DNA of 64,000 nucleotides from a virus (IMGVR_UViG_3300013212_000088:128001-192000); one strand, 5' to 3'. Positions 25,861 through 41,830 are shown, counted from the stretch's first letter. Program-made: numbers and translations. The notes: generated by a model from the letters alone, not told the origin.

Positions 25861-26091
25861 ATGTTCATTTTTTCAAAAGCCTTCCCATTAATGAAAAAAG
25901 GTTATAGAATCCGTCATAAAAGATGGCCCGAGCTTTATTTCATTTTACTTAAAGAAAATAAAGTTTACGATAGTAGTGGAAATCTATACAGCGAAGATTT
26001 TGAAGACTATTTAATTAAAAATTCTGATGTTCAAGATAACGCTGGGCATATTTGGGAACTTTATTATGAAGTTTTAGATGAAAACTTATGA
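25861..26091 (+). CDS. DUF2829/Tad2-like protein (diverged)
   Basis: 'FSKAFPLMKKGYRIRHKRW' matches the Tad2 N-terminal pattern; C-terminal 'DNAGHIWEL' is a degenerate 'D..A.DW'. Confidence 0.55.
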   Translation: MFIFSKAFPLMKKGYRIRHKRWPELYFILLKENKVYDSSGNLYSEDFEDYLIKNSDVQDNAGHIWELYYEVLDENL

Positions 26092-26402
26092 ACGAAAAAG
26101 AGTGGATTGAGAAAATTAAAAAAGAATGCATATTAAACATTGGCAATTTTGATGTAAAATATGCAATCCAATTAGTGGGTCGTTCTGGAAGTAAAATTGG
26201 AATTGTTTCTCTTAACAAAAGATTCATGTCTGTTGATATAATCGATAAAGTTAAATATGAAAGATTTTACGATAACTTTTATTCAAGAAACAACAAAGAG
26301 GCTAGACCACCTTTGGTAATCGATTATCACATTGAGCATCCTATAACACAAAAAGGATTTAAAGTTCTTTGGCATTTTTATTATGGAAAATTTAAAAAGT
26401 AA
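26088..26402 (+). CDS. Hypothetical early protein
   Basis: 104 aa, ATGA-coupled. Confidence 0.6.
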   Translation: MNEKEWIEKIKKECILNIGNFDVKYAIQLVGRSGSKIGIVSLNKRFMSVDIIDKVKYERFYDNFYSRNNKEARPPLVIDYHIEHPITQKGFKVLWHFYYGKFKK

Positions 26403-26992
26403 TGGCAAGATTTAAGCATAGTTTTTTCAGATACATACCAAGTACTGATGAGAGACAATCTTTTTTTAAGTTTGTAGAGACGTTCGAAACTGATAATGAT
26501 TCAGTTCCAAAGTATGATGATCATTATTGCATTGATCATATTGTCAATTTAGACAATGGGCAAATGAGAGTTAAAAATCATTCAGCACCAGAATATTGCG
26601 TGTCCAAATATGTAGGATGGTCTTTAAGCCTACCTCCCGTCGAAAAGACAAATAAACAAGAAATATATGTAGTTATTCATAGAAGTTCTTTTGCTCACAA
26701 AAGAATTGAATTTGATGAGTTTTTAGAGCCAAAAGATAAGCGATATACTCAAGATGAATGGAACTCTCTCTTATCTTCAATTGAAAAGAAGTTCAATAGA
26801 CAAAAAGAATGGGCTAAAGAAGGTATCAGAGTTCCAAGTCAATATGAAGATGGAACTCAAGTATTTAGAGCTGAAGAAGAGTTTAGAGCATTTTCATTAG
26901 GAAGACGTGCTTATTTCCTTTATCATTTAGTAAATAGTCATAAGTTTACTCATCTAGTTCGTAGGTTGAATATTGGGTATACAAGTGGATAA
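26402..26992 (+). CDS. Hypothetical early protein
   Basis: 196 aa, TAATG-coupled. Confidence 0.6.
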   Translation: MARFKHSFFRYIPSTDERQSFFKFVETFETDNDSVPKYDDHYCIDHIVNLDNGQMRVKNHSAPEYCVSKYVGWSLSLPPVEKTNKQEIYVVIHRSSFAHKRIEFDEFLEPKDKRYTQDEWNSLLSSIEKKFNRQKEWAKEGIRVPSQYEDGTQVFRAEEEFRAFSLGRRAYFLYHLVNSHKFTHLVRRLNIGYTSG

Positions 26993-27233
26993 AACTACCA
27001 TCATCAATTGTGATTGCTTGTGTCATTCTTTACATGTACGTCCAGATACAGAATTAAAAACTGTGGATATATCACTTTGGAATTATGGTTTTAATGATGG
27101 TAAATTACATTGGAAAAAAAGATTACAAATTCTTATTGATGGATTTGCTTACTCAGATTTAGTTGTTTTAGATAAAGAAGAGCTTGATAAATTAATTATT
27201 GCACTGGAGGAAGCCCGTGGAAGAATTGCCTAA
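26985..27233 (+). CDS. Hypothetical early protein with CxCxCH motif
   Basis: 'NCDCLCHSLHV'; GTG start at 26985 preferred over TTG 26973. Confidence 0.6.
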   Translation: MDKTTIINCDCLCHSLHVRPDTELKTVDISLWNYGFNDGKLHWKKRLQILIDGFAYSDLVVLDKEELDKLIIALEEARGRIA

Positions 27234-28068
27234 AAACCAAAAAGAGTACTATCATAACAAAGTTCGTGAGTTTGAAAAGCGCACAGGAAAAAGTATGAAT
27301 GTTAAGGGTGTTAGTAAAATGTATGATTGTAATATTGAATATGCTATATATGACACTCCAGCTGCTATGAACATGATGCAAAAACACGGATGCTATATCT
27401 ATCACAGTTTATTAGCAGAAGAAGACCCTCGCCCTAATGGTACTGACTGGCAGATGTATGCTTTCGCTTATGTAAATGGCAAGGTATACAAATACTATTA
27501 TGAAACCAAACAATGGGGTGCAGAAGTTAAAGATTTTACACATCACCAAAATGAAGACAAAACTTGGAAAGCTGCGAAGTTGGATAAGGCTAATTTCCCA
27601 TATACTTTAGATCCAGGTGAAGATTACTTACCTTATGCAGTCGAAAACAAGCATATTGGCTCTAATTTTGATGATTTTTTAAAGACAAATAAAATTGAAC
27701 TAAAAAGAGATATCAATTGGGCTGTAAAAATGCTTAATGCTGGAAAGATGATGTCTAGAGAAGGTAATCCTAGTCTTACATTATTTCCTAAAAAATATGA
27801 CCATGCAGAATCCACAATCACCACAGAAGATCTTTTTGCTGAAGATTGGGTTGTGGTGCAGAGTAAATCATTCAAAGATGTAGTGGATGATTTAAATGCT
27901 GGAAAAACAATCAGACGTAAAAGTTGGCATTCTGATTGGGGTGTTGGTAAATATGCTAGATACGGCAAAATTATTTATTTAGATTTAATTGCTGATGACT
28001 GGGAAGTTGTTGATGTCGTAGCTGAAGTTGATAAAATTCAAAAAGACCTAAAAGATGGAAAAATTTAG
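27217..28068 (+). CDS. Fusion protein: unknown N-domain + antitoxin-like peptide + two tandem DUF2829/Tad2-like domains
   Basis: GTG 27217 with GGAGG SD; 'WAVKMLNAGKMMSREG..EDLFAEDWVVV' and 'FKDVVDDLNAGKTIRRKSW..DLIADDWEVV'. Confidence 0.7.
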   Translation: MEELPKNQKEYYHNKVREFEKRTGKSMNVKGVSKMYDCNIEYAIYDTPAAMNMMQKHGCYIYHSLLAEEDPRPNGTDWQMYAFAYVNGKVYKYYYETKQWGAEVKDFTHHQNEDKTWKAAKLDKANFPYTLDPGEDYLPYAVENKHIGSNFDDFLKTNKIELKRDINWAVKMLNAGKMMSREGNPSLTLFPKKYDHAESTITTEDLFAEDWVVVQSKSFKDVVDDLNAGKTIRRKSWHSDWGVGKYARYGKIIYLDLIADDWEVVDVVAEVDKIQKDLKDGKI

Positions 28069-28255
28069 TGCAATTTTATTATCAGCAATTTTTGTCTGTT
28101 CCTTATGTAGCTGGGCTTACTTTCTTATAGGATCATTTAAAGTTGTTATTAAGAAAGATCGATCTTTCTTGCAATTCACTTCTTCTTTTCTTATAATTAG
28201 TGGAATGTTAAGTAGTTTGTTTTTCTTGGTTCTGAGAGTATTTTATGGAAGCTGA
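28055..28255 (+). CDS. Small membrane protein (two hydrophobic segments)
   Basis: 66 aa with two long hydrophobic stretches separated by KKDR. Confidence 0.6.
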   Translation: MEKFSAILLSAIFVCSLCSWAYFLIGSFKVVIKKDRSFLQFTSSFLIISGMLSSLFFLVLRVFYGS

Positions 28256-28514
28256 GCCTAGAATTTACAGTGAAGAATATGTAAGAGGGCGTATATGGTC
28301 TTTTACTAGATTTAATAAATATTTACGACAAATTGCTCATATTTTTTGTGAAGAGTTTCAATATGACAAAGATGACATTATTGAAGTTAGTCTTTGTGAT
28401 GATGGCAAAACAGTCTGGGTTCATTTTGACTCTGGCACAATTGGTTTTGCTTCTGAATTACTTTGGGATAACAATGTAAGAGAAACATTTAGAAAAAATT
28501 ATAAGGTAGACTAA
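28245..28514 (+). CDS. Hypothetical early protein
   Basis: 89 aa, overlaps both neighbours. Confidence 0.6.
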   Translation: MEAEPRIYSEEYVRGRIWSFTRFNKYLRQIAHIFCEEFQYDKDDIIEVSLCDDGKTVWVHFDSGTIGFASELLWDNNVRETFRKNYKVD

Positions 28515-28729
28515 TGCTGCCAATACCACATGATATAATTGAAAAGCTAAATGATGGATATTTTTTAATTGTTAAAGATGAAAAAAATATTACAGCTTGG
28601 CGAATCAAAGATGGTGAGCTTCAAAATAGGTGCAAGCATAAAACTGGTACAACTCATTGGATGACAATAAAGTATCTTATCTTGCCCATGGAAGCTGAAT
28701 ATTCGTTTAAGAAGATGAATGGAGAATGA
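28514..28729 (+). CDS. Small paralogue family B, member 1
   Basis: 'IPHDIIEKLNDG..WRIKDG..W' shared with 28739 and 30649. Confidence 0.6.
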   Translation: MLPIPHDIIEKLNDGYFLIVKDEKNITAWRIKDGELQNRCKHKTGTTHWMTIKYLILPMEAEYSFKKMNGE

Positions 28730-28738
28730 GTGGAATAA

Positions 28739-28969
28739 ATGTTTAATATTTCTTTTGATATAATATACAAATTGAAAATGGGCTTTGTCGTTGTTCAAAA
28801 GCATGACAATGGTGTTTCAAAATGGAGAATCTTAGGCGATAGATTTGAGTCTTGCTTTTGTGATGAAAGTGTAACCGAGAACATCTGGGTTAAAGCTGAT
28901 GTATTGACTCTTGATCCTAATGCTTCTTATAGTTTTGTTCCAAAAACAAAAAATAAAAATGACTGGTAG
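28739..28969 (+). CDS. Small paralogue family B, member 2
   Basis: 'ISFDIIYKLKMG..WRILGD..W'. Confidence 0.6.
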   Translation: MFNISFDIIYKLKMGFVVVQKHDNGVSKWRILGDRFESCFCDESVTENIWVKADVLTLDPNASYSFVPKTKNKNDW

Positions 28970-29228
28970 AGAAGTATTAACACATTTACACGCTGGCTAC
29001 ACTCTTAGGCGAAAAGAATGGGAGCCTGACCAAAAGTGTAAAGCTTATTTTAGTGAGGATATGTGGTCTGTAAAGATTAATATTAACGACCCAATATTAG
29101 GAGCTTTAGACACTCATTTAGTACCACAATGGGTTCCTGAAAAGCCTGAGTTTTCCAATTATGTATGCTACTATGATATTATTGATAACGGTGATTTATT
29201 AGAAGACGATTGGGAAATCGTAGAATGA
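28959..29228 (+). CDS. DUF2829/Tad2-like protein
   Basis: 'MTGREVLTHLHAGYTLRRKEW..DLLEDDWEIVE'; start moved to ATG 28959. Confidence 0.7.
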   Translation: MTGREVLTHLHAGYTLRRKEWEPDQKCKAYFSEDMWSVKININDPILGALDTHLVPQWVPEKPEFSNYVCYYDIIDNGDLLEDDWEIVE

Positions 29229-29452
29229 AATTCTCAGAAGTAGTTGATGCTTTAATGGAATACAAGCCAATATCGAGAAGTGGTTGGGCTGATGGCAAAT
29301 TTTTGTATCTTGATAAAGAACAAAATTGGTTTGCTTACCATATCAAAGAAGATTACGAAGAAGATGATTACGAATGCATCACCTATAGACTTAATTTATC
29401 ACCTGAAGACATATTTGCTAATGATTGGGAGATTTTAGATGAAGTTCTCTGA
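29225..29452 (+). CDS. DUF2829/Tad2-like protein
   Basis: 'MKFSEVVDALMEYKPISRSGW..LSPEDIFANDWEIL'; ATGA-coupled start at 29225. Confidence 0.8.
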   Translation: MKFSEVVDALMEYKPISRSGWADGKFLYLDKEQNWFAYHIKEDYEEDDYECITYRLNLSPEDIFANDWEILDEVL

Positions 29453-29705
29453 AGTTATTGACGCTTTAATGGAAGGTAAACCAATCTCAAGAACTGGTTG
29501 GGAAAATAACAACTATATCTTCTATGACAAAAATGACAATTGTTTTGTATTTGTAAATTATCCAGATGACATTGAAAAAAGATATGAATTGGCATCTGTA
29601 GGTCTTGATTTATACCCCCGTGATATAATTGCTGATGATTGGGATATTGATGATTGGGATCCAGACCATATTGTTGACGCTAACAAAAAGGTAGATGAAG
29701 AATGA
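29439..29705 (+). CDS. DUF2829/Tad2-like protein
   Basis: 'MKFSEVIDALMEGKPISRTGW..LYPRDIIADDWDI'. Confidence 0.8.
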   Translation: MKFSEVIDALMEGKPISRTGWENNNYIFYDKNDNCFVFVNYPDDIEKRYELASVGLDLYPRDIIADDWDIDDWDPDHIVDANKKVDEE

Positions 29706-29720
29706 CTTGGAGATGCTGGA

Positions 29721-29939
29721 ATGAAATTTTCTGAAGTAGTTGACTCATTAATGGCTGGTAAACGTGTGCGTAAGACCAATTGGGAAAGCAAAACTGCTTT
29801 CTTTCTCTACGACAAGGAAGATAACACTTTTGATTTCTACGAAGTCTTAGATGGAGAAGTATGTAGGACTCAATTTTACACGGAGCTTAATCTTACTCCT
29901 AAAGATTTGATGTCTGACTTCTGGGAGGTTGTAGAATGA
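29721..29939 (+). CDS. DUF2829/Tad2-like protein
   Basis: 'MKFSEVVDSLMAGKRVRKTNW..LTPKDLMSDFWEVVE'. Confidence 0.8.
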   Translation: MKFSEVVDSLMAGKRVRKTNWESKTAFFLYDKEDNTFDFYEVLDGEVCRTQFYTELNLTPKDLMSDFWEVVE

Positions 29940-30649
29940 CTGGAATTGAAGCTTTATCCCTGTTAAAAGATGGCAAAACTTTAAGAAGAGAATCCTGGGA
30001 ACCTCATGAAAAATGTAAAGCTTTAGATTTCTTTGGTCAATGGATTGTACACCTGATAAAAGAACATGATGATGAAAAGTTAGACAAAGAATTAGAGTCA
30101 ATATTTCAAAACAGTTTTACATTTACAAAGACCACTTTTGATGATTTCTTTGGATTATTTGATACAATAGATGCTGGAGAATTTCTTCATGATGATTGGC
30201 AAATTCAAAATGGCGAAAAAGAGAGACAAATAATTATAGAAAATATTATTATTCAAGCAGTTGACTGTTATCGACATGACTATTGGAAAGTAAGTTTAGA
30301 TTTGCTTGCCCAATTAAATATTTTTGATGCTATAAGTGATGATTCTTATTTGGGTAATGGGTCAGAACCTCTAAATGAAGATGGTTATGCCTATCTTGAA
30401 ATTGATTCTGATTGTAGTATTTTTGATAAAGCGATGAAGTTCTACAAAAAAGAATATTCGCTTGATTTAGATACACTTACAGAAGCTTATTGTGACGAAT
30501 ATGAAGATTATCGTGACTGGCTTGATCAATTAGATTCATATGATGTAGAGCTCTTAGATGAAAAAGGCTATACTGTTGATAATGTTCCTGAAGATTTATC
30601 TGCTGTTTTGATGGCGGATGAAGATGACGAAGAAGAGGATGAAGATTAA
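29936..30649 (+). CDS. DUF2829/Tad2-like domain fused to a strongly acidic C-terminal domain
   Basis: 'MTGIEALSLLKDGKTLRRESW..EFLHDDWQI', then ~140 aa rich in D/E/Y ending DEDDEEEDED. Confidence 0.7.
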   Translation: MTGIEALSLLKDGKTLRRESWEPHEKCKALDFFGQWIVHLIKEHDDEKLDKELESIFQNSFTFTKTTFDDFFGLFDTIDAGEFLHDDWQIQNGEKERQIIIENIIIQAVDCYRHDYWKVSLDLLAQLNIFDAISDDSYLGNGSEPLNEDGYAYLEIDSDCSIFDKAMKFYKKEYSLDLDTLTEAYCDEYEDYRDWLDQLDSYDVELLDEKGYTVDNVPEDLSAVLMADEDDEEEDED

Positions 30650-30879
30650 TGTTAAATATCAATTTTGATTTATTTTATGAATTGAAACAAGGTTCTGTAA
30701 TTTCTAATACAGATAAGGATGTTGTCAAATATTGGAGAATGGTTGATGGTAATTTAGAAACAAGAATGGTCATCAATAAAGATGCACAAGATGATTGGTA
30801 TGTCACTGATCTATTTGTATTCCCTGTAGATGGAAAGTTTAATATTGAAGAGCGTTTTGAAAGATTTAGTTATGGATGA
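30649..30879 (+). CDS. Small paralogue family B, member 3
   Basis: 'INFDLFYELKQG..WRMVDG..DDWY'. Confidence 0.6.
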   Translation: MLNINFDLFYELKQGSVISNTDKDVVKYWRMVDGNLETRMVINKDAQDDWYVTDLFVFPVDGKFNIEERFERFSYG

Positions 30880-31111
30880 AAACAAAGCTAAACGCCTTGA
30901 AAATATCGGCTTTAAAGTGGGGACACTAGCTGATTTTCTTAATCTTAACCCAGAAGAACAATCACAAATTGATAATGTCATAATTAAAAACGGCAAGCCA
31001 ATTGGTATTTGTGATTGTTTGGGTAAAGGAAAAGGATCTTGTAAAGGCAATGGATGGATAAGAGATGGAGCTGGATATCAAAGATGTCCTTACTTTACAT
31101 CTTTCGAGTAA
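30872..31111 (+). CDS. XRE-antitoxin-like N-terminal segment fused to a Cys/Gly zinc finger
   Basis: Start moved to ATG 30872: 'MDENKAKRLENIGFKVGTLADFLNLNPEE' then 'CDCLGKGKGSCKGNGW..CP'. Confidence 0.55.
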   Translation: MDENKAKRLENIGFKVGTLADFLNLNPEEQSQIDNVIIKNGKPIGICDCLGKGKGSCKGNGWIRDGAGYQRCPYFTSFE

Positions 31112-31117
31112 ATAATT

Positions 31118-31372
31118 ATGAAATTCGTACAAACTCTGAAACATCTTAAACAGGGATTCAAAGCACGTAGAAAAAGTTGGGATGAATTATTTTGGATTTC
31201 TCTTGGTAATACTAAACAAGATGATGAAGGTGAGTTCGATGAAACTATTCTTGATAATAGCGAGCTTACTCCAGAAACATTTTTCTTAATTAATTTACAC
31301 GAAGGCATTGAAGCTTTTTGCCCATACTTACAAGACATAGAAGCTGATGATTGGATGATAGTAGAGGATTAA
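31118..31372 (+). CDS. DUF2829/Tad2-like protein
   Basis: 'MKFVQTLKHLKQGFKARRKSW..FCPYLQDIEADDWMIVE', very close to the Tad2 consensus at both ends. Confidence 0.85.
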   Translation: MKFVQTLKHLKQGFKARRKSWDELFWISLGNTKQDDEGEFDETILDNSELTPETFFLINLHEGIEAFCPYLQDIEADDWMIVED

Positions 31373-32004: not shown

Positions 32005-32250
32005 ATGAAGTTGCACGATATTCTCAAAGAAGAGGATGATGATTATTTTTTCTATAGAGAAGATAATATTGATAAGTTCTATTACAAAACTAAAAAGCTT
32101 ATTTATTCTATTCCACAAAAAAGTTATATAAGAGGTATAGAACAAAAGGTTGATCCCAATGGTCTTGAAGATGTTTTTATAAGTTTTCTTTACGATTCTA
32201 TATTTAGTTTTGAAGAAGCAATTTCAGACCTTTGGATTAAGGTTAAATAG
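32005..32250 (+). CDS. Hypothetical protein, possibly a very diverged Tad2-like member
   Basis: Ends 'FSFEEAISDLWIKVK', echoing 'D..ADDW.IV'; N-terminus is only weakly similar. Confidence 0.45.
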   Translation: MKLHDILKEEDDDYFFYREDNIDKFYYKTKKLIYSIPQKSYIRGIEQKVDPNGLEDVFISFLYDSIFSFEEAISDLWIKVK

Positions 32251-32825
32251 TGAAACATTACTATCAAAATATACATGGCTGGTTTGATTATGAGAAATTA
32301 TTTGAAACAGCAATACAAAATTGTCCAGAAAATGGAAAAATTGTAGAATTAGGTTGTTGGAAAGGTAAAAGTTCTTCTTACCTTATTGTTGAAGCATATA
32401 ATTCCAATAAAAACATAGATATCAATTTTGTTGATACATGGGCTGGATCTCCTGAGCATTTAGATCCATCATTAGGCACATACGAAGAAGGGCTTGCTTC
32501 AGATCCAGATTTTGTATATAAAGTTTTTCTAAATAATATTAATAAAACTTCTTATCCAAAAAACATACATAGGATGCACACATTTCAAGCATCCAAATTA
32601 TTTGAAGATAATTCTATAGATTTTTTGTATATTGACACAGCGCATGAGTTTAAACATGTAGAAAAAGAAATTTCCATGTGGTATCCAAAAGTTAAGTCAG
32701 GTGGAAGAATAGCTGGACATGATATATTTTATCCAGGTGTAATGAGAGCTGTTAAAGATTTTTCTAGAAAGTATGACGTCGAAATAAAAAAAATCAATTC
32801 AAGTTGGATTGGGGTAAAATCATAA
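32250..32825 (+). CDS. Class I SAM-dependent methyltransferase (Methyltransf_24-like)
   Basis: 'VELGCWKGKSS', 'VDTWAGS', 'DFLYIDTAHEF', 'IAGHD'. Confidence 0.85.
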   Translation: MKHYYQNIHGWFDYEKLFETAIQNCPENGKIVELGCWKGKSSSYLIVEAYNSNKNIDINFVDTWAGSPEHLDPSLGTYEEGLASDPDFVYKVFLNNINKTSYPKNIHRMHTFQASKLFEDNSIDFLYIDTAHEFKHVEKEISMWYPKVKSGGRIAGHDIFYPGVMRAVKDFSRKYDVEIKKINSSWIGVKS

Positions 32826-33403
32826 TGGAACATTTTTATGAAGAAATTCAAGGTTGGTTTGATTACCAAAATGTTTATGACATTGCAATTAAAACATCAC
32901 CAGAAAATTCTATATTAGTTGAAATCGGATGCTGGAAGGGTAAGAGTTCTTGCTATCTTTTGACACAAGCTTACAATTCTGGGAAAATGCTAAATCTGTC
33001 TTTTATTGATACATGGGCAGGCTCTATTGAGCATTTAGACCCTGAATGCGAATTTCATGAACCAGATCTCTTAACTAATAAAGATCATGTTTGGGATGTA
33101 TTCAACAAAAATATTGCAAGAGTTAATTACCCTAAATCTTTATTCAGAAGGGATACATTTGACGCTGTGAACTATTTTGAAGATAATTCAATTGCGTTTT
33201 TATATATAGATACAGCACATGAGTATGAACATGTAATAAAGGAAATAGATGCCTGGTACCCTAAGGTTAAATTAGGTGGTATTATAGCTGGTCACGATTA
33301 TTTTACCCCGACAGTCAACAAGGCAGTAAATGAGTTCTTTGAAATAAGACCTCATCCGCTAATTTCTTTAAATGCCAGCTGGATTGCCTTTAAAAATTAT
33401 TAA
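32825..33403 (+). CDS. Class I SAM-dependent methyltransferase, tandem paralogue of 32250
   Basis: 'VEIGCWKGKSS', 'IDTWAGS', 'YIDTAHEY', 'IAGHDY'; TAATG-coupled start at 32825. Confidence 0.85.
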   Translation: MEHFYEEIQGWFDYQNVYDIAIKTSPENSILVEIGCWKGKSSCYLLTQAYNSGKMLNLSFIDTWAGSIEHLDPECEFHEPDLLTNKDHVWDVFNKNIARVNYPKSLFRRDTFDAVNYFEDNSIAFLYIDTAHEYEHVIKEIDAWYPKVKLGGIIAGHDYFTPTVNKAVNEFFEIRPHPLISLNASWIAFKNY

Positions 33404-34576: not shown

Positions 34577-35386
34577 TTAAATTACAAAACTAAATGTATT
34601 TAAATGGTTGTTTCTAATCTTGTCTGCATGTTCTGTTCTGTCCCATTGATGATAAATGTAGAAAGTTTCATTATTCTTAGTTTGAACTTTTTTACCATCA
34701 AAATTACATGGAACAAAACCCCATTTAATTCCTTCACCAGTAGCACAAAATGAATCAGTGAATGGGGAACAAACCATAATTTTAGGATTAGACATTAAGT
34801 ATGGATAAAGATAATTTAAAGTTGCCTGATCAGTGTTAGATTTACTTATTCTATTACTGTTAATCCAAAGCAATAAAAACAATTGACTTACAGCAAAAGG
34901 CTTTCCGCCAATTGTTCCACCATTAACAACATAATATTCCATAAAATCATCTTTATGTGCAGATAAAAATGAATGATAATATTTCATGTCATAAAAGTTC
35001 CATTCATTTGTTTTGATTTGAATACCCTCATTAACAACAAAAACATCTTTATCTGGGTGTTGCTTCATAAACTCGAATGGGTCTTTTTGAATGATTACGT
35101 CTCTAAAGTCAACATGCATAACATATTCATAATTATCAAAGTTCTCGACTAACCATTGATAATAAGACATGAATCTATCTCTTGGCCCATTTAAAATAGG
35201 GTTTTTAACTTCAACTACTGCTGTAAAGTATTTCTTAAATGTGTCAATTTGTTGTTGAGTTAAGTCTTTTACAAAACAGATTTTATCAAATGTGTTAAAC
35301 TTTGATAATGTAGTTAAAAATATATCAGCATCTACAGATTCAGCAAAATCTTTTCCCTGAACAAACGTTAGTAATGCATTTTTCAT
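34577..35386 (-). CDS. Putative GT-A glycosyltransferase
   Basis: 'VMHVDFRDVIIQKDPF', 'VNGGTIGG', 'DQATLNY', 'HQWDR'; start moved to MKNALL (35386). Confidence 0.65.
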   Translation of the reverse strand: MKNALLTFVQGKDFAESVDADIFLTTLSKFNTFDKICFVKDLTQQQIDTFKKYFTAVVEVKNPILNGPRDRFMSYYQWLVENFDNYEYVMHVDFRDVIIQKDPFEFMKQHPDKDVFVVNEGIQIKTNEWNFYDMKYYHSFLSAHKDDFMEYYVVNGGTIGGKPFAVSQLFLLLWINSNRISKSNTDQATLNYLYPYLMSNPKIMVCSPFTDSFCATGEGIKWGFVPCNFDGKKVQTKNNETFYIYHQWDRTEHADKIRNNHLNTFSFVI

Positions 35387-35411
35387 ATAGGTATTGTACA
35401 ATCTAAGTGTC

Positions 35412-36389
35412 ATGATAGTAAGTAAAACTCCATATAGAATAAGTTTTTTTGGTGGTGGTTCAGACTTACCATCCTATTATATGCAAGAAGAAGGATGCGT
35501 AATTTCTACTTCTATTGATAAATATCTTTACATAACTACTAGTAAAAAGTTTGATCAATCTATTAGACTTAGCTATTCTGTTACTGAAAATGTATCTGAA
35601 ACTAAACATCTTCAACATGATATTGTAAGAAATATCCTCGAAGTGTTTAAAGTAAAAACAGGAATTGAAATTACTTCTGTTTCTGATTTGCCTTCCAGCG
35701 GTACAGGCATGGGATCTTCTAGTGCTTTTGCTGTTGGTTTGATAAATGCACTCTTTAAATATACAAATGGCGCCAAACCTAATCCAGAAGCCTTAGCTCT
35801 TATGGCTTGCGCAGTTGAAATAGATATGTGCGAAAAAACAATTGGAAAACAAGACCAATTTGCTTGCGCTTATGGTGGATTCAATGAGTTTATTTTTAAG
35901 AAGAATAGTGTCATAGCTAATCCAATACAAATATCTCAAGATGTTAAAAAAGAATTAGAAGATAATATGCTTCTTCTTTACACTAACACTTCAAGACTAG
36001 CTAACGAAATTTTGAAAGAACAAAGCCAGAATACAGAATCTAATTTGACAACAATGAACAACCTTAAAGAAATGGTCAAATTGGCTCATATTTTCAAAGA
36101 TAATGTAATTAATCATAAATTAGAAAATGTAGGCGAAATGTTAGATTATTCATGGCAATTAAAGAAGAATCTAACATTAAACATATCTAACCCTGAATTA
36201 GATGAGCTTTATGAATATTGCAAAAAGCTTGGGGCAAAAGGTGGAAAGATTTTAGGAGCTGGTGGTGGAGGATTTATGCTTATATATGCTGACCCAAAAT
36301 CACAAGAAAAAATCAAAAAGGAATTGAGAAGATACAAACCTTTCAATGTAAAAATTGCTACTGAGGGTTCTAAATCTCAAGAGGTATAA
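35412..36389 (+). CDS. hddA: GHMP sugar-phosphate kinase, HddA (heptose-7-phosphate kinase) type
   Basis: 'SKTPYRISFFGGGSD', 'PSSGTGMGSSSA', 'GKQDQ..AYGG', 'GGKILGAGGGGF'; start at MIVSK (35412). Confidence 0.8.
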   Translation: MIVSKTPYRISFFGGGSDLPSYYMQEEGCVISTSIDKYLYITTSKKFDQSIRLSYSVTENVSETKHLQHDIVRNILEVFKVKTGIEITSVSDLPSSGTGMGSSSAFAVGLINALFKYTNGAKPNPEALALMACAVEIDMCEKTIGKQDQFACAYGGFNEFIFKKNSVIANPIQISQDVKKELEDNMLLLYTNTSRLANEILKEQSQNTESNLTTMNNLKEMVKLAHIFKDNVINHKLENVGEMLDYSWQLKKNLTLNISNPELDELYEYCKKLGAKGGKILGAGGGGFMLIYADPKSQEKIKKELRRYKPFNVKIATEGSKSQEV

Positions 36390-36396
36390 TAAAATT

Positions 36397-36951
36397 ATGT
36401 ATGTTAATAAAGATTTACCACCACATTTAGGCGGACATGACAACGAAACGCATCTTGATAATGGTGTTTTAGATTATATGATTTCTAAGTACAAAGTAGA
36501 ATCATATTTGGACGTAGGATGCGGACCAGGAGGAATGGTTGAATTAGCTGCCTCTAAAGGTTTAAGTGTTCTTGGAATTGATGGTGACTTTACTTTAAAC
36601 CACAAAGAAAAAACATTAATTCATGACTACACAAAAGGTTCAGCTGATATTATTAAAAAGTTTGATATGGCTTGGAGCTGTGAGTTTCTTGAACATGTTG
36701 AAGAAAAATATATGCCTTATTACATGGATTCATTCAAAAAAGCAAAGTATGTAGTATGCACTTATGCTGTGCCAGGACAATGGGGACATCATCATGTTAA
36801 TTGCCAAACCATGGATTATTGGAAGCAAAAGTTTTCTGATTATGGATTTAAGTTTTCAGCAACAGAAACATTAAAACTTAGAGAAGCTTCTACAATGCCA
36901 GCAATTCATTTTAAAAGATCTGGAATGTTTTTCTTTAATCTAAACCCATAG
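36397..36951 (+). CDS. Class I SAM-dependent methyltransferase
   Basis: 'LDVGCGPG', 'GIDG', 'FDMAWSCEFLEHV', 'GHHHVN'; start moved to ATG 36397. Confidence 0.8.
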   Translation: MYVNKDLPPHLGGHDNETHLDNGVLDYMISKYKVESYLDVGCGPGGMVELAASKGLSVLGIDGDFTLNHKEKTLIHDYTKGSADIIKKFDMAWSCEFLEHVEEKYMPYYMDSFKKAKYVVCTYAVPGQWGHHHVNCQTMDYWKQKFSDYGFKFSATETLKLREASTMPAIHFKRSGMFFFNLNP

Positions 36952-37384
36952 TTTTGTATCTTCCTATTACATCAGAGCATATACCATAACACATAGAAAT
37001 ATCAGAATAAGAATGGTTTTCTGGCATTACACATATAGAGCCTTGAATTAAATCTTCTCCAGTGTAAGTCCAAATGCGCCCTTTAGAAGTTAAAGTGTAA
37101 TTGTCATTCTGGTGCCAAAAGTATTCACTCTTCATATCAGCTTTACTCATAAAAAGTAAGGCTTCTTTATTTTTACAGTGAACAAATAGCTTGTCATTAT
37201 TTAAGAAGTCTAATTCAATTTTATAAACAGGTTTGTCATGACCTAAAAATAAATTATCTTCAATTACATAAAGATCTATTTCTACGTGATAACCCAAACC
37301 AATAGCCCTAATTATATAATCAGGGCTATTTTCATTTTGCTCATTTATAGAAGTGACGTTACCTCTATGAGAAATTAAAACCAT
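36935..37384 (-). CDS. Short GDPD/PLC-like phosphodiesterase-fold protein
   Basis: 'ISHRGN..EN', 'VEIDL', 'LGHD', 'HCKN', 'GICSD' follow the glycerophosphodiesterase motif order. Confidence 0.65.
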   Translation of the reverse strand: MVLISHRGNVTSINEQNENSPDYIIRAIGLGYHVEIDLYVIEDNLFLGHDKPVYKIELDFLNNDKLFVHCKNKEALLFMSKADMKSEYFWHQNDNYTLTSKGRIWTYTGEDLIQGSICVMPENHSYSDISMCYGICSDVIGRYKTMGLD

Positions 37385-38043
37385 TATCTTTTCTTTGCTA
37401 GTGTATCAAATTGGGTAATTACCAACTTGTATCCTAATAATTGTAGTCTTTTAGTTAGCAAAGCTACATCTGCCTTATCTGAATGAGAATTAGATTCAAA
37501 ATAAATCTGATCTGGGCACTTATCATACTCAACAAAGTAATCTAAAGCTGCATTTACTAATTTACAATCATATCCCTCAACATCAACCTTTAAATACTTA
37601 ATATAACCAATTTCATATTCATCAACTAAGTTTTTAAAGGTAAGACATTTAACTGTGTCTACATTTACCATGCCCAATTCCAAAAGGTTGTAGGTAGTAA
37701 ACTTAGACTTGTCTTCAGCTAGATGCCATTCGTAAGGATTGTAGTAGTAAGCCACATGAAAATCATGAGGTTTATTCACAGTATTACAGCCAGCCAACCA
37801 ACCCCCTAAATTATGTTTATTAATTACATCTTCATGTACATAATAGAAAACAATTGTTCCATCACCCAAATCTTCATCTGACACCAAAGCTGCATTAACT
37901 TTGACTACATTTGGCTTATCTGGCAATTTATCTTGATACATTTTAATTGGCTCAACAGACAATCCAACAGTATTATCATCAGCCTTTTCAATCAAGGTAT
38001 CAAAAAAACAAGTCCCAACCTCTACAAAGTCGTAAGTTTTCAT
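37384..38043 (-). CDS. FkbM-like methyltransferase
   Basis: 'FVEVGT', 'SVEP', 'VNAAL', 'YLKVDVEGYD', 'IYFE'. Confidence 0.75.
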   Translation of the reverse strand: MKTYDFVEVGTCFFDTLIEKADDNTVGLSVEPIKMYQDKLPDKPNVVKVNAALVSDEDLGDGTIVFYYVHEDVINKHNLGGWLAGCNTVNKPHDFHVAYYYNPYEWHLAEDKSKFTTYNLLELGMVNVDTVKCLTFKNLVDEYEIGYIKYLKVDVEGYDCKLVNAALDYFVEYDKCPDQIYFESNSHSDKADVALLTKRLQLLGYKLVITQFDTLAKKR

Positions 38044-39215
38044 TCAACTAGGCCCCACTTGTTAATTGCTTGAAGATATTCATTTTCAAAAGTTTTATCG
38101 ATAGCCTGTCTCATAGCTTTAGCTCCTGCAACTGTTCCTGAAGGATGACCATGTAGCGCTCCACCACAATTTGCAAGGTAATTGATTCCAAACTTTTCAG
38201 TGATAGTATTGACAATTCCAGGGTGCATTCCACAAGACAATGCTGGAACTACATTTCTAGAGTGCAAAATACCCATAGTGTTTTTAAGATCGTTTTCATC
38301 ATCACTTGCGTAGCCGCCCCACATTCCAGTATGAATAAAGTCAACGCCCATTAAACCTGCTAAGTAGCAAATTACACTCCAATCAATATGAAAAGCATGC
38401 TTCTTGTTTGTAAGGATCTTATCGCCACTCTTTTGGAAGTGCATAAACAATGGAAGGTCTAATTCTCTTACAGACTTGTAAACACCCATTCCTGACCAGA
38501 AATTGATGTGAATACCGTTCCCGCCCTCTTGATGAATAAACTTAACTCTATCAAGTATGTGAGCTGGATCTGCATTGACACAGAAACAGTAAACTACATT
38601 CTTATCTCTAATGTATTCCGAGATAATAGGAACTCTTTCTTCTAATCTACATACTTCAGGGTTGGACATGATTTCATCTTCCTTGATGAAATTAACTCCA
38701 CCCTCAACCATTTCTTTTACCATATCGAGAAGAATACCAGGGCTCATTCCAGTTTTAGGCTTGCAGATACCGCCTAATAATGGTCTATTATGTGACTTGG
38801 TAAATTCTCTTGCACCAGTAATACCAAACTTAGGTAATTTAAAATATTTATCAATTACCCAATTAGGAATAATAAGATTTTCGAGCCAACATGTTTCAAT
38901 AGTGTCAATGTCTAACTGTCCACCCATCAAAAAACATAGAAGTTGAGAAATACCATCCGTAGAAAAGTCAATATTTGTTACAGGAAATCCAATTTCAACA
39001 CGACCAGAGTTAAGCTCAAGGTCTGAACAATTTTTTACAACACAAGAATGATTGTAAAATAACTCATCTGTTTCTCTTTCAAGTCTTACTAAAGGATTGC
39101 CAACGCTCTGGCCAATTGCAAGATTCCATGCAGCATCCCTTACGCCTTTTGAAGATTCTAAAAAATAAAATCCTTTGATATATCTTTCAGAATCAATTTC
39201 ATCTACAAAAATCAT
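38040..39215 (-). CDS. RuBisCO-like protein (form IV)
   Basis: 'GGICKPKTG', 'GGVNFIKEDE', 'DFIHTG', 'PALSCGMHPG', 'CGGALHGHP'; loop-6 Lys missing ('MWGGY') and the His294 equivalent replaced by Gln. Confidence 0.9.
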   Translation of the reverse strand: MIFVDEIDSERYIKGFYFLESSKGVRDAAWNLAIGQSVGNPLVRLERETDELFYNHSCVVKNCSDLELNSGRVEIGFPVTNIDFSTDGISQLLCFLMGGQLDIDTIETCWLENLIIPNWVIDKYFKLPKFGITGAREFTKSHNRPLLGGICKPKTGMSPGILLDMVKEMVEGGVNFIKEDEIMSNPEVCRLEERVPIISEYIRDKNVVYCFCVNADPAHILDRVKFIHQEGGNGIHINFWSGMGVYKSVRELDLPLFMHFQKSGDKILTNKKHAFHIDWSVICYLAGLMGVDFIHTGMWGGYASDDENDLKNTMGILHSRNVVPALSCGMHPGIVNTITEKFGINYLANCGGALHGHPSGTVAGAKAMRQAIDKTFENEYLQAINKWGLVE

Positions 39216-39538
39216 TCTTTCACCTCATATTTATCCCCAGGAACAGATGGAGACTTTACACATACAATTGTACAGTCTTCAAGAAATTCTGGTTGTGCAA
39301 TTTCATTTTTTTCAATTAAAAATATACTACCTGGGCTTAAACTTTTACCATTAATAATCATTTTACCCGATATCAAAACATTGACTTCAACTGCTTCTTT
39401 GTGATAATGCTTGGGCCACTCTTCACCTTTTGGATGAAATAAAACACCAACCTCAAACTTATCAGTCTTGTAAATGGATGGGTCAAAGTTTCCTATAAAC
39501 CAACCCCTAAACATATTTTCTAAGTTATCAATTATCAT
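39212..39538 (-). CDS. Cupin-fold protein
   Basis: 'HYHKEAVEVNVLISGKM..PGSIF' cupin motif; ATGA-coupled start at 39538. Confidence 0.75.
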   Translation of the reverse strand: MIIDNLENMFRGWFIGNFDPSIYKTDKFEVGVLFHPKGEEWPKHYHKEAVEVNVLISGKMIINGKSLSPGSIFLIEKNEIAQPEFLEDCTIVCVKSPSVPGDKYEVKE

Positions 39539-40143
39539 CTTTTTGTAATAAAAGTCATTCCCCAATCAGTTTTTTCAACACATCTTTTGGAAATTTCATA
39601 TTTATCATTTTTTAAATTATTCACTAAATTTGTAGGTCCAGGATGAAAATTGGTGTCATGAAAAGCAATTATTCCATCTTTAGAAAGTAATTCAATATAT
39701 CGCCAGTCATTTAAAACTTGATTAATACTTGCCCAGCTATCAATAAAAATAAAATCAAATTCTTCAACACTGTGAGACTTAGCAAAACTTAAAACTTCCT
39801 CAATATTAGATGAATCAGTGGTTATGGTAAAAACATTATTTTTGATGTCATTCAAATCTGACTTATCTTTTATGTCTACTCCAAAATATTTAGTAGATGT
39901 GAGTTTGCTGTCAAGTAAAAGCTTAGTAAATGATCTGTCTGACCTATTACCAACACCTATTTCTAAAATTGAATTACAGTTATTCCTTATCGTCCCGAAA
40001 TAATGTATCAAAATACTTATATTTGCATCTGATACTTCTTTAGGAGGCTCAAATGTAGTAGGCCAATCAGAATCATCATGGTCAGTATATGTTCTAATTT
40101 CTTTATATAAATCTCTTTTAATTAATTCATCAATAGTTATCAT
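39535..40143 (-). CDS. Class I SAM-dependent methyltransferase-like protein
   Basis: 'ILEIGVG', 'GVDI', 'FDFIFID', 'IAFHDT'. Confidence 0.75.
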   Translation of the reverse strand: MITIDELIKRDLYKEIRTYTDHDDSDWPTTFEPPKEVSDANISILIHYFGTIRNNCNSILEIGVGNRSDRSFTKLLLDSKLTSTKYFGVDIKDKSDLNDIKNNVFTITTDSSNIEEVLSFAKSHSVEEFDFIFIDSWASINQVLNDWRYIELLSKDGIIAFHDTNFHPGPTNLVNNLKNDKYEISKRCVEKTDWGMTFITKR

Positions 40144-40852
40144 TTGGGTTTTCCTTTAAAAACAAATCCAAATCTTCTTCAGTGCCTATAGCCCAATGCT
40201 GGCAATTAGGAATATGATAGATACCAACTTTATATCCACCTTCTACTAATTTATTATACGAAGGACCAATGTAAAACTCACCATTCGGAGCTCTTTCATT
40301 AGAAGCAATCATAGAATTAGCACTTTCTACAAAATATCTTCCTGATTTCCAAAAGTGTATTCCATTCAAAGAAATGTTACTTATTATTTGCTTCTCTTGG
40401 ATTTCTGTTACATTGCCTGATTTATCTAATTTAGCGTAACTGTTTTTATTCGTGTCTGCAAAATAAGTAACAACAAAACCATCTTTAGGATAGTTGTTAC
40501 AAAAAGATTGAAATGTTTTTTTATCCCAATGCATTATTTGATCGCAGTTGGTTATAATTAAAGGTTCTGAATTATTGATTAAATCTTTAGCTAATAAAGC
40601 AGTACAAGCTGGGCCTTCTGTCAAATGATCAACAGAAATAACAGTGCAATTACAAATCGAATGCAGTATTTCATCAACCTTATAATCTCTAATATGCTCT
40701 TCTTTAACAATAAATATATAATTACCATCAATTCCTAAAGATTTGATTACAGCCTCAATCATATACTCGTTGTTGAATTTTATAAGGGGTTTGGGTACTT
40801 TACTATTTGGAAATCTACTTCCTAGACCAGCCATAGGAATTAAAATATTCAT
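40130..40852 (-). CDS. Sugar-phosphate nucleotidyltransferase (NTP_transferase family)
   Basis: 'ILIPMAGLGSRF..PKPLI', 'TEGPACT', 'NCDQ', 'EKQ', 'NGEFY', 'GTEEDL'. Confidence 0.85.
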   Translation of the reverse strand: MNILIPMAGLGSRFPNSKVPKPLIKFNNEYMIEAVIKSLGIDGNYIFIVKEEHIRDYKVDEILHSICNCTVISVDHLTEGPACTALLAKDLINNSEPLIITNCDQIMHWDKKTFQSFCNNYPKDGFVVTYFADTNKNSYAKLDKSGNVTEIQEKQIISNISLNGIHFWKSGRYFVESANSMIASNERAPNGEFYIGPSYNKLVEGGYKVGIYHIPNCQHWAIGTEEDLDLFLKENPNDNY

Positions 40853-40882
40853 AATTATATTTTACCACTTATAAAAAGACAC

Positions 40883-40916
40883 AAAAAAACAGGGGAAGAA
40901 AAATCTTCCCCTGTTT
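40883..40916 (-). terminator. Intrinsic terminator after the major capsid gene
   Basis: aaacaggggaaga-aaaa-tcttcccctgttt followed by a T-run on the minus strand. Confidence 0.85.
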
Positions 40917-40923
40917 AATATTA

Positions 40924-40956
40924 ATAATAGGGGAAGAATAAATCTTACCCTATTAT
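40924..40956 (-). terminator. Second, related hairpin between capsid stop and main terminator
   Basis: ataataggggaaga-ataaa-tcttaccctattat (one mismatch); shares the ggggaaga/tctt core with the hairpin at 40887. Confidence 0.5.
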
Positions 40957-40975
40957 AGTTAACCATGCTATGGTT

Positions 40976-41830
40976 TTAACTGACTGTAATTTTACTCACA
41001 GCAAAATCGTTGATGAGAGCAAATCCGAGCTCTTCGTAAACAACCCATCCGAGACGAAGTCTCTTTGGATCGTCAGCTGGAAGAACGGTAATGTCTTGGC
41101 GAACTGGCATTGCACCAACGAATTGGGCAGGTGCTAGGACGTAGACAGCGTTCTTAGGAACCATGGTGCTGACGTGGATGTCTGCAGAGTAGATATGGCC
41201 GTAGAGACCGGTCATAAGGATGTCTCTTTGAGTTGCCTCATCGAAGAATTCCTTACCCCAGTTTCTGATATCCTTGTATCTTTGTGGGTGAAGAACAACC
41301 TTAGCACCGATGAGTTCGTGCTCTTCAATGAGAGTCAACGCAAGGTTGATGTTCTCTGGTTGAAGAGTACCGGAAACACTGATGGATTGGTCGGTTGGAA
41401 CACCGGCATTGATGACCTTGAAGACTTCAGTATCTTCTTGTCTTTGGAGGGAGTCCTTAGCACGGACTTGAGCTCTATCGACAATGTAGAATCTTCTTTG
41501 GCGAATCTCATTGAGTCTGATTTGTGGGTGAGCAGCAAGTTCAATTGTTGGAACGAGGAGCTCTTCAGCTTCGACTTCTGCGGATGGAACACCACCACGC
41601 TTAGGAATGACGTAGGACTTTACAGCAACGTCTCTTTCGTAGCGAGCAAGTGCGCCTTGTGGAAGCTCATCGACCATCAATAACTTACGACCAATTGCTT
41701 GGTACATAAGGGAGGTCTTGATTGGCTCGACCATAGCTTGTGCAAGAGCTGTACGACCTTCAGCGGTCTCGAGCGCCATTGCAATAATGGCCTCTCTTTG
41801 CTCGTTTGAGTTTCTCTTAATCATTGACAT
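40976..41830 (-). CDS. Major capsid protein (compact HK97 fold)
   Basis: 'ALAQAMVEPIK..YQAIGRKLLMVDELPQG', 'RAKDSLQRQEDTEVF', 'GWVVYEELGFALINDFAV'; last gene of the portal-protease-scaffold run; strong SD and C-ending codon bias. Confidence 0.8.
   Translation of the reverse strand: MSMIKRNSNEQREAIIAMALETAEGRTALAQAMVEPIKTSLMYQAIGRKLLMVDELPQGALARYERDVAVKSYVIPKRGGVPSAEVEAEELLVPTIELAAHPQIRLNEIRQRRFYIVDRAQVRAKDSLQRQEDTEVFKVINAGVPTDQSISVSGTLQPENINLALTLIEEHELIGAKVVLHPQRYKDIRNWGKEFFDEATQRDILMTGLYGHIYSADIHVSTMVPKNAVYVLAPAQFVGAMPVRQDITVLPADDPKRLRLGWVVYEELGFALINDFAVSKITVS

Follow-up and report, generated by a model that had tools for sequence, protein, structure and literature searches.

Organization of the operon

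This report concerns an operon of six genes built around a RuBisCO-like protein (RLP), found in a 64,000-nucleotide stretch of viral DNA, hereafter the window, which spans bases 128001-192000 of the 261-kb IMG/VR virus record IMGVR_UViG_3300013212_000088 (estimated completeness 73%). The window holds genes for an HK97-fold capsid, a portal, and a large terminase, and its source is on that account taken to be a jumbo tailed phage; the phage is a freshwater one, and several studies of lakes and other fresh waters have yielded metagenomes with near-identical DNA. Judged from sequence, the operon is probably one instance of a mobile cassette whose product, destined for a glycan, is a nucleotide-activated sugar or a sugar-like phosphate. 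The operon and its RLP had no match among the isolated phages of INPHARED (megablast, tblastn), and among viruses the RLP clade is known only from uncultivated ones.

Six tightly coupled open reading frames (ORFs) on the minus strand occupy positions 40852-36935. They encode, in order, a sugar-phosphate nucleotidyltransferase (NT-A; 40130-40852, 240 aa, PF00483); a class I S-adenosylmethionine (SAM) methyltransferase resembling Methyltransf_24 (39535-40143, 202 aa, PF13578 below cut-off); a predicted single-domain metal cupin (39212-39538, 108 aa from ATG, recognized by motif, profile, and fold); an RLP of the "Form IV-like" clade (38040-39215, 391 aa, PF00016); a weakly called accessory gene product, the FkbM-like methyltransferase (37384-38043, 219 aa, PF05050 and TIGR01444 below cut-off); and a truncated GDPD-like phosphodiesterase (mini-GDPD; 36935-37384, 149 aa) with HRGN, EN, E-x-D, and HD motifs in that order. 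The nucleotidyltransferase and methyltransferase genes overlap by 14 nt; the methyltransferase/cupin, cupin/RLP, and RLP/FkbM junctions are ATGA, and the FkbM/GDPD junction is TAATG. The cupin ORF as listed begins at an upstream TTG (39565); all 20 aligned homologues begin at the equivalent of the ATG at 39538, which is most likely the start codon and gives the 108-aa product. A sequence-only reading that preceded this analysis had described the six genes and their junctions, and the ORFs and sequence agree with it.

The major capsid gene (40976-41830, minus strand; HK97 fold, NF042927 6e-56, above cut-off) lies directly upstream; it is given as context and falls outside the pathway discussed below. 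The spacer between the two (40853-40975) contains two hairpins, the second of which is a strong intrinsic terminator on the minus strand (40887-40916; 13-bp stem followed by a T-run). The spacer varies among strains: a contig from a lake metagenome omits 84 bases here (40916 to 41001). A TATAAT-like box lies just 5' of the nucleotidyltransferase start codon; promoter-like matches in the operon region were no commoner than in shuffled sequence, and no promoter is claimed. The coupled junctions, the upstream terminator, and this box together mark off the operon as a compact, separate unit. Contigs from three metatranscriptomes covered the capsid gene; for the operon, coverage was limited to a 319-nt contig in the FkbM-like gene (96% identity) and a 125-nt contig in the RLP gene (90%), which supports neither expression nor silence.

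The RLP: class, active site, and phylogeny

Membership of the RuBisCO large-subunit superfamily is clear: the protein matched PF00016 at 1e-33 (117 bits; cut-off 30.1), its best PDB match was the Pyrococcus form III enzyme 2cwx (7e-32), 99 PDB chains of RuBisCO or RLPs matched it at E <= 0.001, and 2726 relatives, many from marine surveys, were found at E <= 1e-10. It scored below the cut-off of every NCBIfam equivalog model, including form III (TIGR03326, 162 versus 497 bits), OiaX (130 versus 700 bits, E 1.4e-37), and MtnW (128 versus 409 bits for NF007095; 102 versus 514 for TIGR03332).

Active-site residues were read from an alignment with one form I and two form III enzymes, OiaX, and three acid-sugar RLPs. 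K175, K177, K201, D203, E204, H327, S379, G381, and G403 are kept. Substituted positions are N123G, H294Q, R295K, H298D, K334Y, G380C, and G404A, and a motif alignment of the window protein showed E60, T65, and W66 replaced by Q, N, and P. The full pattern recurred, at every position, in 22 of 24 other members of the clade, and K175, K177, K201, D203, and E204 were invariant in all 25 members examined, as expected of form IV RLPs in general. The metal/carbamate site and the enolizing lysine are thus retained and the residues for carboxylation lost; by the same alignment the C1-phosphate loops (P1 glycines) are intact and the distal (P2) phosphate site is altered. The protein is accordingly predicted to be a non-carboxylating, form IV-type protein. 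In these respects the sequence-only reading was accurate: it had noted the retained CKPK and KEDE motifs and the loss of Lys334 and His294, and had called the RLP a form IV type that does not fix CO2, which agrees with lost carboxylation residues beside retained K175, K201, D203, and E204.

Two identities were tried and rejected. A bona fide RuBisCO of forms I-III is excluded by N123G, H294Q, R295K, H298D, and K334Y and by the TIGR03326 score. An MtnW/YkrW enolase, a grouping that the earlier reading had named as fatal to its own proposal, is excluded by the equivalog scores quoted above and by the lack of mtn genes, none of which was found in the Pfam-scanned neighborhood of the operon. Position 123, which we take to be that of the catalytic lysine of MtnW, is glycine in the phage protein.

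A maximum-likelihood tree, of the kind that the earlier reading had proposed for placing the protein, grouped the window RLP with viral contigs and with proteins of metagenome-assembled genomes (MAGs) and genomes from Patescibacteria, Beckwithbacteria, Saccharibacteria, Verrucomicrobiae, Planctomycetales, Saprospirales, Turneriella, and DPANN archaea. The clade is monophyletic (support 100/100, stem 1.76) and stands apart from forms I and III, OiaX, and the acid-sugar RLPs. A Beckwithbacteria MAG protein (locus L061; L numbers denote the compared loci) is 52% identical to the window RLP and nested inside the clade, which assigns the latter, on sequence grounds, to the phage/Beckwithbacteria "Form IV-like" group. 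In Woesearchaeota and Nanoarchaeia MAGs (L074, L075; genomes G003, G002) the "Form IV-like" RLP is accompanied by a canonical form III RuBisCO, encoded separately and complete in its catalytic residues.

The group was described by Jaffe, Castelle, Dupont, and Banfield (2019, Mol Biol Evol; PMC6389311) from about 90 phage fragments and from Beckwithbacteria, so that the existence of phage RLPs is already published; the function was left open. The clade treated here is the same, with many IMG/VR contigs, very large phages among them, and divergent, partly conserved catalytic residues. The text of that paper, by contrast, never mentions nucleotidyltransferases or glycosyl genes, and the linkage of nucleotidyltransferase, cupin, and RLP, the nucleotidyltransferase-RLP fusions, and the RLP-less bacterial cassette reported below go beyond it. 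A literature search found no link between an RLP and nucleotide-sugar synthesis, and nothing on an RLP with a nucleotidyltransferase and a cupin, on an RLP in a jumbo phage or as an auxiliary metabolic gene, or on "IV-like" after 2019. New in the present analysis are the RLP-less cassette, fusions of a HAD protein with a nucleotidyltransferase, the residue signature shared across the clade, and the precedent of the DeepYkr RLP with its cupin, discussed below.

OiaX/OiaC and the acid-sugar RLPs of apiose, erythronate, and threonate catabolism are likewise non-carboxylating members of the superfamily and act on a phosphorylated keto-sugar acid at a carbamyl-Lys/Mg2+ site. They differ from the phage RLP in sequence (25-29% identity), in forming a separate well-supported branch, and in keeping H294, R295, and K334; their genes stand in catabolic surroundings, among kinase and aldo-keto reductase genes, and have no nucleotidyltransferase neighbor.

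Partner enzymes

NT-A matched PF00483 at 3.8e-5 (above cut-off) and PF12804 at 1.2e-5. Its N-terminus carries a G-x-G-x-R-F...K-P-L signature, invariant at G9, G11, R13, and K21. The family profile matched PDB 4evw, an unassigned structural-genomics entry named "NDP-sugar pyrophosphorylase", over its full length (2e-32), followed by GMPP and RmlA structures (1e-8 to 1e-11); the nearest NCBIfam models were of the GlmU and RmlA types, all with scores far below their cut-offs. These matches place the protein in the sugar-1-phosphate nucleotidyltransferase (RmlA/GlmU/GMPP) superfamily. A predicted complex of RLP and NT-A scored 0.00 in a run without controls and counts neither for nor against binding.

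The cupin, searched as a single sequence, had no Pfam or NCBIfam match. The motif G-x5-HxH-x4-E-x6-G, with H44, H46, and E51 as ligands, is invariant in the alignment and places the protein in the cupin superfamily. In its AlphaFold2 model (pLDDT 96) the best Swiss-Prot fold matches were the C-terminal phosphomannose isomerase (PMI) cupins of ManC, AlgA, and XanB (2e-6 to 2e-5), and 175 PDB cupins matched at E <= 0.001, among them the archaeal mini-PMI 7zvm/7zvy, KdgF, and ectoine synthase. On this basis it is predicted to be a metal cupin that resembles PMI. ManC and AlgA are known to pair a cupin isomerase with a nucleotidyltransferase. The likeness of the phage pair to ManC/AlgA/XanB, which combine a type II PMI with a GDP-mannose pyrophosphorylase, thus lies in the association of a sugar-1-phosphate nucleotidyltransferase with a His-His-Glu cupin isomerase; the differences are that the phage has two separate small proteins of about 20% identity to those enzymes, and an RLP in addition.

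The GDPD-like protein had no Pfam match as a single sequence. Ten residues are invariant in its alignment (H6, R7, G8, N9, E18, N19, E35, D37, H49, D50), and its profile matched the GDPDs 3i10 (3e-6) and 7e0v (7e-5). Foldseek searches with the AlphaFold2 model (pLDDT 94.7) gave GDPDs as top matches with a probability of about 1.0 and TM scores of only 0.4-0.6; no PDB match reached E <= 0.001. The 149 residues align to part of the barrel, about a third of which is missing, and the protein is best modeled as a truncated relative of GDPDs, not a typical member.

Both methyltransferases of the operon fell below family cut-offs: the Methyltransf_24-like protein narrowly (PF13578, 5.2e-5), and the other, called an FkbM methyltransferase in the sequence-only reading, with 20.6 versus 22.7 bits for PF05050 (5e-4) and 21.9 versus 37.7 bits for TIGR01444 (2e-4). 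The likeness to FkbM stands, and family membership does not; "FkbM-like" is the call that the sequence supports.

Conservation of the gene set

Viral comparison covered 53 RLP loci, of which 49 had enough upstream sequence to be informative. NT-A homologues lay just upstream of the RLP gene on the same strand in all 49, and cupin homologues in 48; a WavE-family gene was inserted between cupin and RLP in seven of those 48. Homologues of the GDPD-like protein were present in 42/53 loci, and those of the Methyltransf_24-like protein in 28/53, where their position varied and some formed a single polypeptide with the GDPD-like protein (e.g. L014 9241-10401). FkbM-like homologues occurred in L003 and L043 only (2/53), which leaves this gene outside the conserved core. 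The order of capsid gene and then operon was shared with two relatives, L003 and L004.

Cellular genomes carry the set in other arrangements. A closed Verrucomicrobiae chromosome has RLP, nucleotidyltransferase, and cupin in that order; Turneriella has RLP, cupin, and nucleotidyltransferase, with a glycosyltransferase family 2 (GT2) gene beside them on the other strand; MAGs of Candidate Phyla Radiation (CPR) bacteria have GDPD-like, cupin, and RLP genes with a divergent nucleotidyltransferase; and DPANN archaea keep the RLP and nucleotidyltransferase, with no cupin detected at the threshold used. Fusion proteins of nucleotidyltransferase and RLP, about 637 aa long, also exist. The possibility raised beforehand that the gene set might not be conserved together elsewhere clearly fails against the near-universal viral linkage, the rearranged cellular loci, and these fusions; the feature is real and well conserved, and the earlier reading as a whole is supported in part.

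The RLP always stands in glycan-biosynthesis surroundings. Flanking genes at the viral loci encode WavE, GT2, GT4, GT6, GT8, and GT11 proteins, NAD epimerases, CMP-sugar synthetases, UDP-glucose dehydrogenase, pyruvyl transferase, and asparagine synthase. In one subgroup (L020, L026, L030-L032, L036, L040, L041, L054, L055; e.g. L032 2100-6444) the RLP gene is followed by genes for an APH-like kinase, a dehydroquinate-synthase-like cyclase (211 bits with the aroB model, below cut-off), an SDR, and a radical-SAM protein; this subgroup may represent a cyclitol or C7 branch of the pathway.

A cassette without RLP in cultured bacteria

Orthologues of the cupin and NT-A, 35-45% identical, were found by tblastn side by side on plasmids of Ruegeria, Roseinatronobacter, Pseudomonas, Scandinavium, and Acetobacter. 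The order in these uncharacterized cassettes is GDPD-like phosphodiesterase, beta-phosphoglucomutase-like HAD protein, second nucleotidyltransferase (NT-B), cupin, NT-A, and WavE (loci L089 7004-11146; L090 6153-9309 and 13543-14604; L092 6001-10179; L091 7986-15122; and L093 5761-8330; the Pseudomonas carriers are P. alcaligenes and P. aeruginosa). The phosphodiesterase is homologous to the phage mini-GDPD; the HAD protein is nearest to the beta-phosphoglucomutase family, below cut-off; the nucleotidyltransferases are annotated as "glycosyltransferase family 2" yet match PF00483. In Ruegeria and Scandinavium the cassette adjoins genes for O-antigen ligase, flippase, or ABC transporters. Because the cupin-NT-A pair occurs without an RLP in these cultured bacteria, the RLP is best seen, as far as gene content can tell, as an optional upstream feeder step, with the downstream genes swappable.

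Fusions of a beta-phosphoglucomutase-family HAD protein with a sugar-1-phosphate nucleotidyltransferase, 454-456 aa long, were also observed at two RLP loci (L004 9180-10544; L024 5575-6945). In L004, the closest relative of the phage, the fusion gene stands directly after the RLP gene, at the place where the phage has the FkbM-like and mini-GDPD genes. Strict replacement of the HAD protein and second nucleotidyltransferase by the RLP was considered and is rejected as a rule, as L004, L024, L056, and L057 carry both.

Proposed pathway and alternatives

All characterized RLPs abstract a proton next to the carbonyl of a phosphorylated keto-sugar at a carbamyl-Lys/Mg2+ site and then re-protonate, the outcomes being those of an enolase, a 1,3-isomerase, an epimerase, or a decarboxylase. 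From this chemistry and the gene set we infer the following steps, substrate, product, and target included. The RLP, using its carbamyl-Lys/Mg2+ site (K201, D203, E204) and K175, would enolize a phosphorylated ketose and re-protonate the enediol to an isomer or epimer, with no carboxylation. The metal cupin would interconvert ketose and aldose phosphate; a 1-phosphate could be supplied by the HddA-like GHMP kinase encoded next door (35394-36389) or by a mutase of the host; and NT-A would form the NDP-sugar. Methyltransferases may then tailor the sugar, and a transferase encoded elsewhere would place it on the glycan, the mini-GDPD possibly acting as a phosphoester hydrolase or in a phospho-transfer step. 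The best reading of the operon is hence synthesis of a nucleotide-activated donor, an anabolic role favored by the conserved linkage of nucleotidyltransferase, cupin, and RLP and by the glycan-biosynthesis surroundings. The proposal of an unusual NDP-sugar in the sequence-only reading survives to that extent, and the particular product that it named, a branched or methylated sugar, is not established.

Several points weigh against this reading. NT-A could equally activate a non-glycosidic phosphate monoester; the fold search discriminates poorly among cupins, as ectoine synthase, KdgF, and dimethylsulfoniopropionate lyases score similarly to PMI; and the change at the P2 site of the RLP (R295K, H298D) leaves its substrate class uncertain. 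The conserved core has no mutase or phosphatase, the neighborhood of the operon in the window phage showed neither a glycosyltransferase nor a WavE gene, and the HAD-NT-B fusion and an RLP co-occur at some loci, so that the logic of the cassette is not one of simple substitution. The RLP tree was built without MtnW, DeepYkr, and Photo references, and placement relative to these rests on the hidden Markov model (HMM) scores and on PMC6389311.

Direct activation of the RLP product by NT-A, giving the donor of a phospho-substituent, is a serious alternative, if an unlikely one. The product of the RLP would be a ketose, polyol, or acid, small and phosphorylated; NT-A would activate its phosphate monoester in the style of LicC, TarI, or the CDP-6-fructose enzymes, and a WavE-type or GDPD-like enzyme would link phospho-X to the glycan by a phosphodiester bond. 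Such a scheme draws on the substrates of characterized RLPs and RuBisCO, all of which have CH2-OPO3 beside the carbonyl, together with the retained P1 site (G381, G403); on weak matches of the NT-A profile to LicC, inositol-1-phosphate, and MEP cytidylyltransferases; on the phosphodiesterase-fold protein in 42 of the 53 loci and in the RLP-less bacterial cassette; and on the nucleotidyltransferase-RLP fusions, which fit consecutive steps. The strongest relatives of NT-A, however, are the sugar-1-phosphate enzymes 4evw, GMPP, and RmlA, and a PMI-like cupin fits the formation of an aldose; no CDP-alcohol or LicD/TagF-type transferase was seen, and the mini-GDPD lacks about a third of the barrel. 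The target may also be other than a host surface glycan: the activated sugar could be used on the DNA of the phage itself, as base hypermodification, or on the virion. Phages are known to glycosylate DNA bases and sometimes virion proteins, the operon directly follows the major capsid gene in the phage and two relatives, and no host-type ligase or flippase lies nearby in the window. We consider this target quite improbable, given that the cassette is placed differently in other phages, that its bacterial counterpart adjoins O-antigen ligase, flippase, and WavE genes, and that the strong terminator separates operon and capsid gene; it concerns the target only and is compatible with the chemistry of an activated sugar donor.

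A salvage module resembling the MTA-isoprenoid shunt, recycling by-products of the SAM enzymes of these islands, is very unlikely. Its precedent is real, in that adjacent RLP and cupin genes have been shown by experiment to act as a unit in R. rubrum and in R. palustris (RPA2169/RPA2170): the DeepYkr RLP, an enolization-based 1,3-isomerase, isomerizes 5-methylthioribulose-1-phosphate, and the small cupin encoded beside it acts on the product, removing the methylthio group to give DXP (PMC5893883). The islands are, moreover, rich in SAM methyltransferases, some with radical-SAM genes. The phage RLP nevertheless belongs to another clade with a distinct, near-invariant active-site signature and scores far below the methionine-salvage equivalog cut-offs; its gene is linked to that of a nucleotidyltransferase, in some proteins by outright fusion, and the shunt makes no use of such an enzyme; MtnP, MtnA, and MtnK genes are missing from the cassette, the cupin has no NCBIfam match, and the setting is always a glycan cluster, not sulfur salvage. 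It is extremely unlikely that the RLP carboxylates after all, its gene serving as an auxiliary one in carbon fixation or in an AMP/pentose-bisphosphate pathway. In favor of this, form III enzymes gave the highest HMM and PDB scores, and members of the clade are also encoded in CPR and DPANN genomes with a form III RuBisCO; against it, the whole clade has lost K334, N123, and H294, the window RLP has other residues at E60, T65, and W66 as well, the DPANN genomes keep their canonical form III gene separately, and the cassette has no phosphoribulokinase, AMP phosphorylase, or R15P isomerase.

For the preferred reading, an activated sugar donor, the GDP-D-glycero-alpha-D-manno-heptose pathway (GmhA, HddA, GmhB, HddC) offers a parallel in its logic of isomerase, anomeric kinase, phosphatase, and nucleotidyltransferase: the window kinase is nearest to HddA/WcbL, and HddC-type proteins match the NT-A profile at 2.5e-6. 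The parallel is imperfect, as no phage gene reaches the equivalog cut-offs, a cupin stands in place of the SIS isomerase, a GmhB-type phosphatase is missing, and the kinase lies outside the conserved cassette. The only hints of a C7 sugar are this HddA-like kinase and the GmhA-like and sugar-phosphate-cyclase-like genes of other loci. More boldly, and with considerable doubt, the RLP may be the first case of a RuBisCO-superfamily protein that serves glycan synthesis anabolically: by shifting or inverting a carbonyl or stereocenter on a common ketose phosphate (possibly C5 or C7) it would make a rare sugar, which the cupin and NT-A would convert into an NDP-donor for use late in infection on the virion or the host surface.

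The function of the "Form IV-like" group has been open since 2019, and the group comprises thousands of sequences from lakes, oceans, and CPR and DPANN genomes. Its wiring to a nucleotidyltransferase and a cupin turns the question into a pathway with named partner enzymes that can be tested at the bench; the fusions lend weight to this, and the RLP-less strains of Ruegeria, Pseudomonas, Acetobacter, and Scandinavium, being cultivable, give a genetic handle on the downstream half. If true, the proposal would give a superfamily known chiefly from work on carbon fixation and sulfur salvage a new reaction type and a new physiological role, the synthesis of glycan precursors, and would name a sugar produced by many aquatic phages in the course of infection.

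Neighboring genes and other observations

Neighbors of the operon in the window are the GHMP kinase, three more methyltransferases, and a 278-aa protein. The kinase, convergent with the operon (35394-36389, plus strand; PF00288, PF08544), resembles HddA/WcbL: its PDB matches were 4usm/4usk (4e-37) and 3k85 and 4n3o (about 1e-36), and it scored 161 bits with the HddA model NF049969 (cut-off 600). It is kept with the operon in L003 and L004 only, and is a possible supplier of the sugar 1-phosphate. The 278-aa protein (34577-35413, minus strand) had no Pfam, NCBIfam, or PDB match; it is kept near the operon in the same two related jumbo phages (tblastn identity 92% in L003 and 59% in L004) and is a candidate transferase.

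A class I SAM methyltransferase of 198 aa is encoded on the plus strand at 36355-36951 (PF13489 1.4e-6, PF08241 1.2e-5). Its 3' end overlaps that of the convergent, minus-strand GDPD-like gene by 17 nt (36935-36951), and no terminator was found between the two. Two tandem Methyltransf_24/TylF-like paralogues (191 and 199 aa) lie upstream of the island, at 32250-33403 on the plus strand; with four others they make six methyltransferase-like genes within 9 kb.

A six-frame search for a WavE-like gene in the window and the phage genome was negative, and was insensitive, as it failed even on the nucleotidyltransferase of the window itself. The phage genome has two GT2-like glycosyltransferase matches beyond the window (G000:C1:235318-235590 and 243747-243893); these are candidate users of the activated sugar. 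Tad2-like domains (PF11195) occur in several neighboring genes at 25861-31372, e.g. 27199-28068 and 29936-30649.

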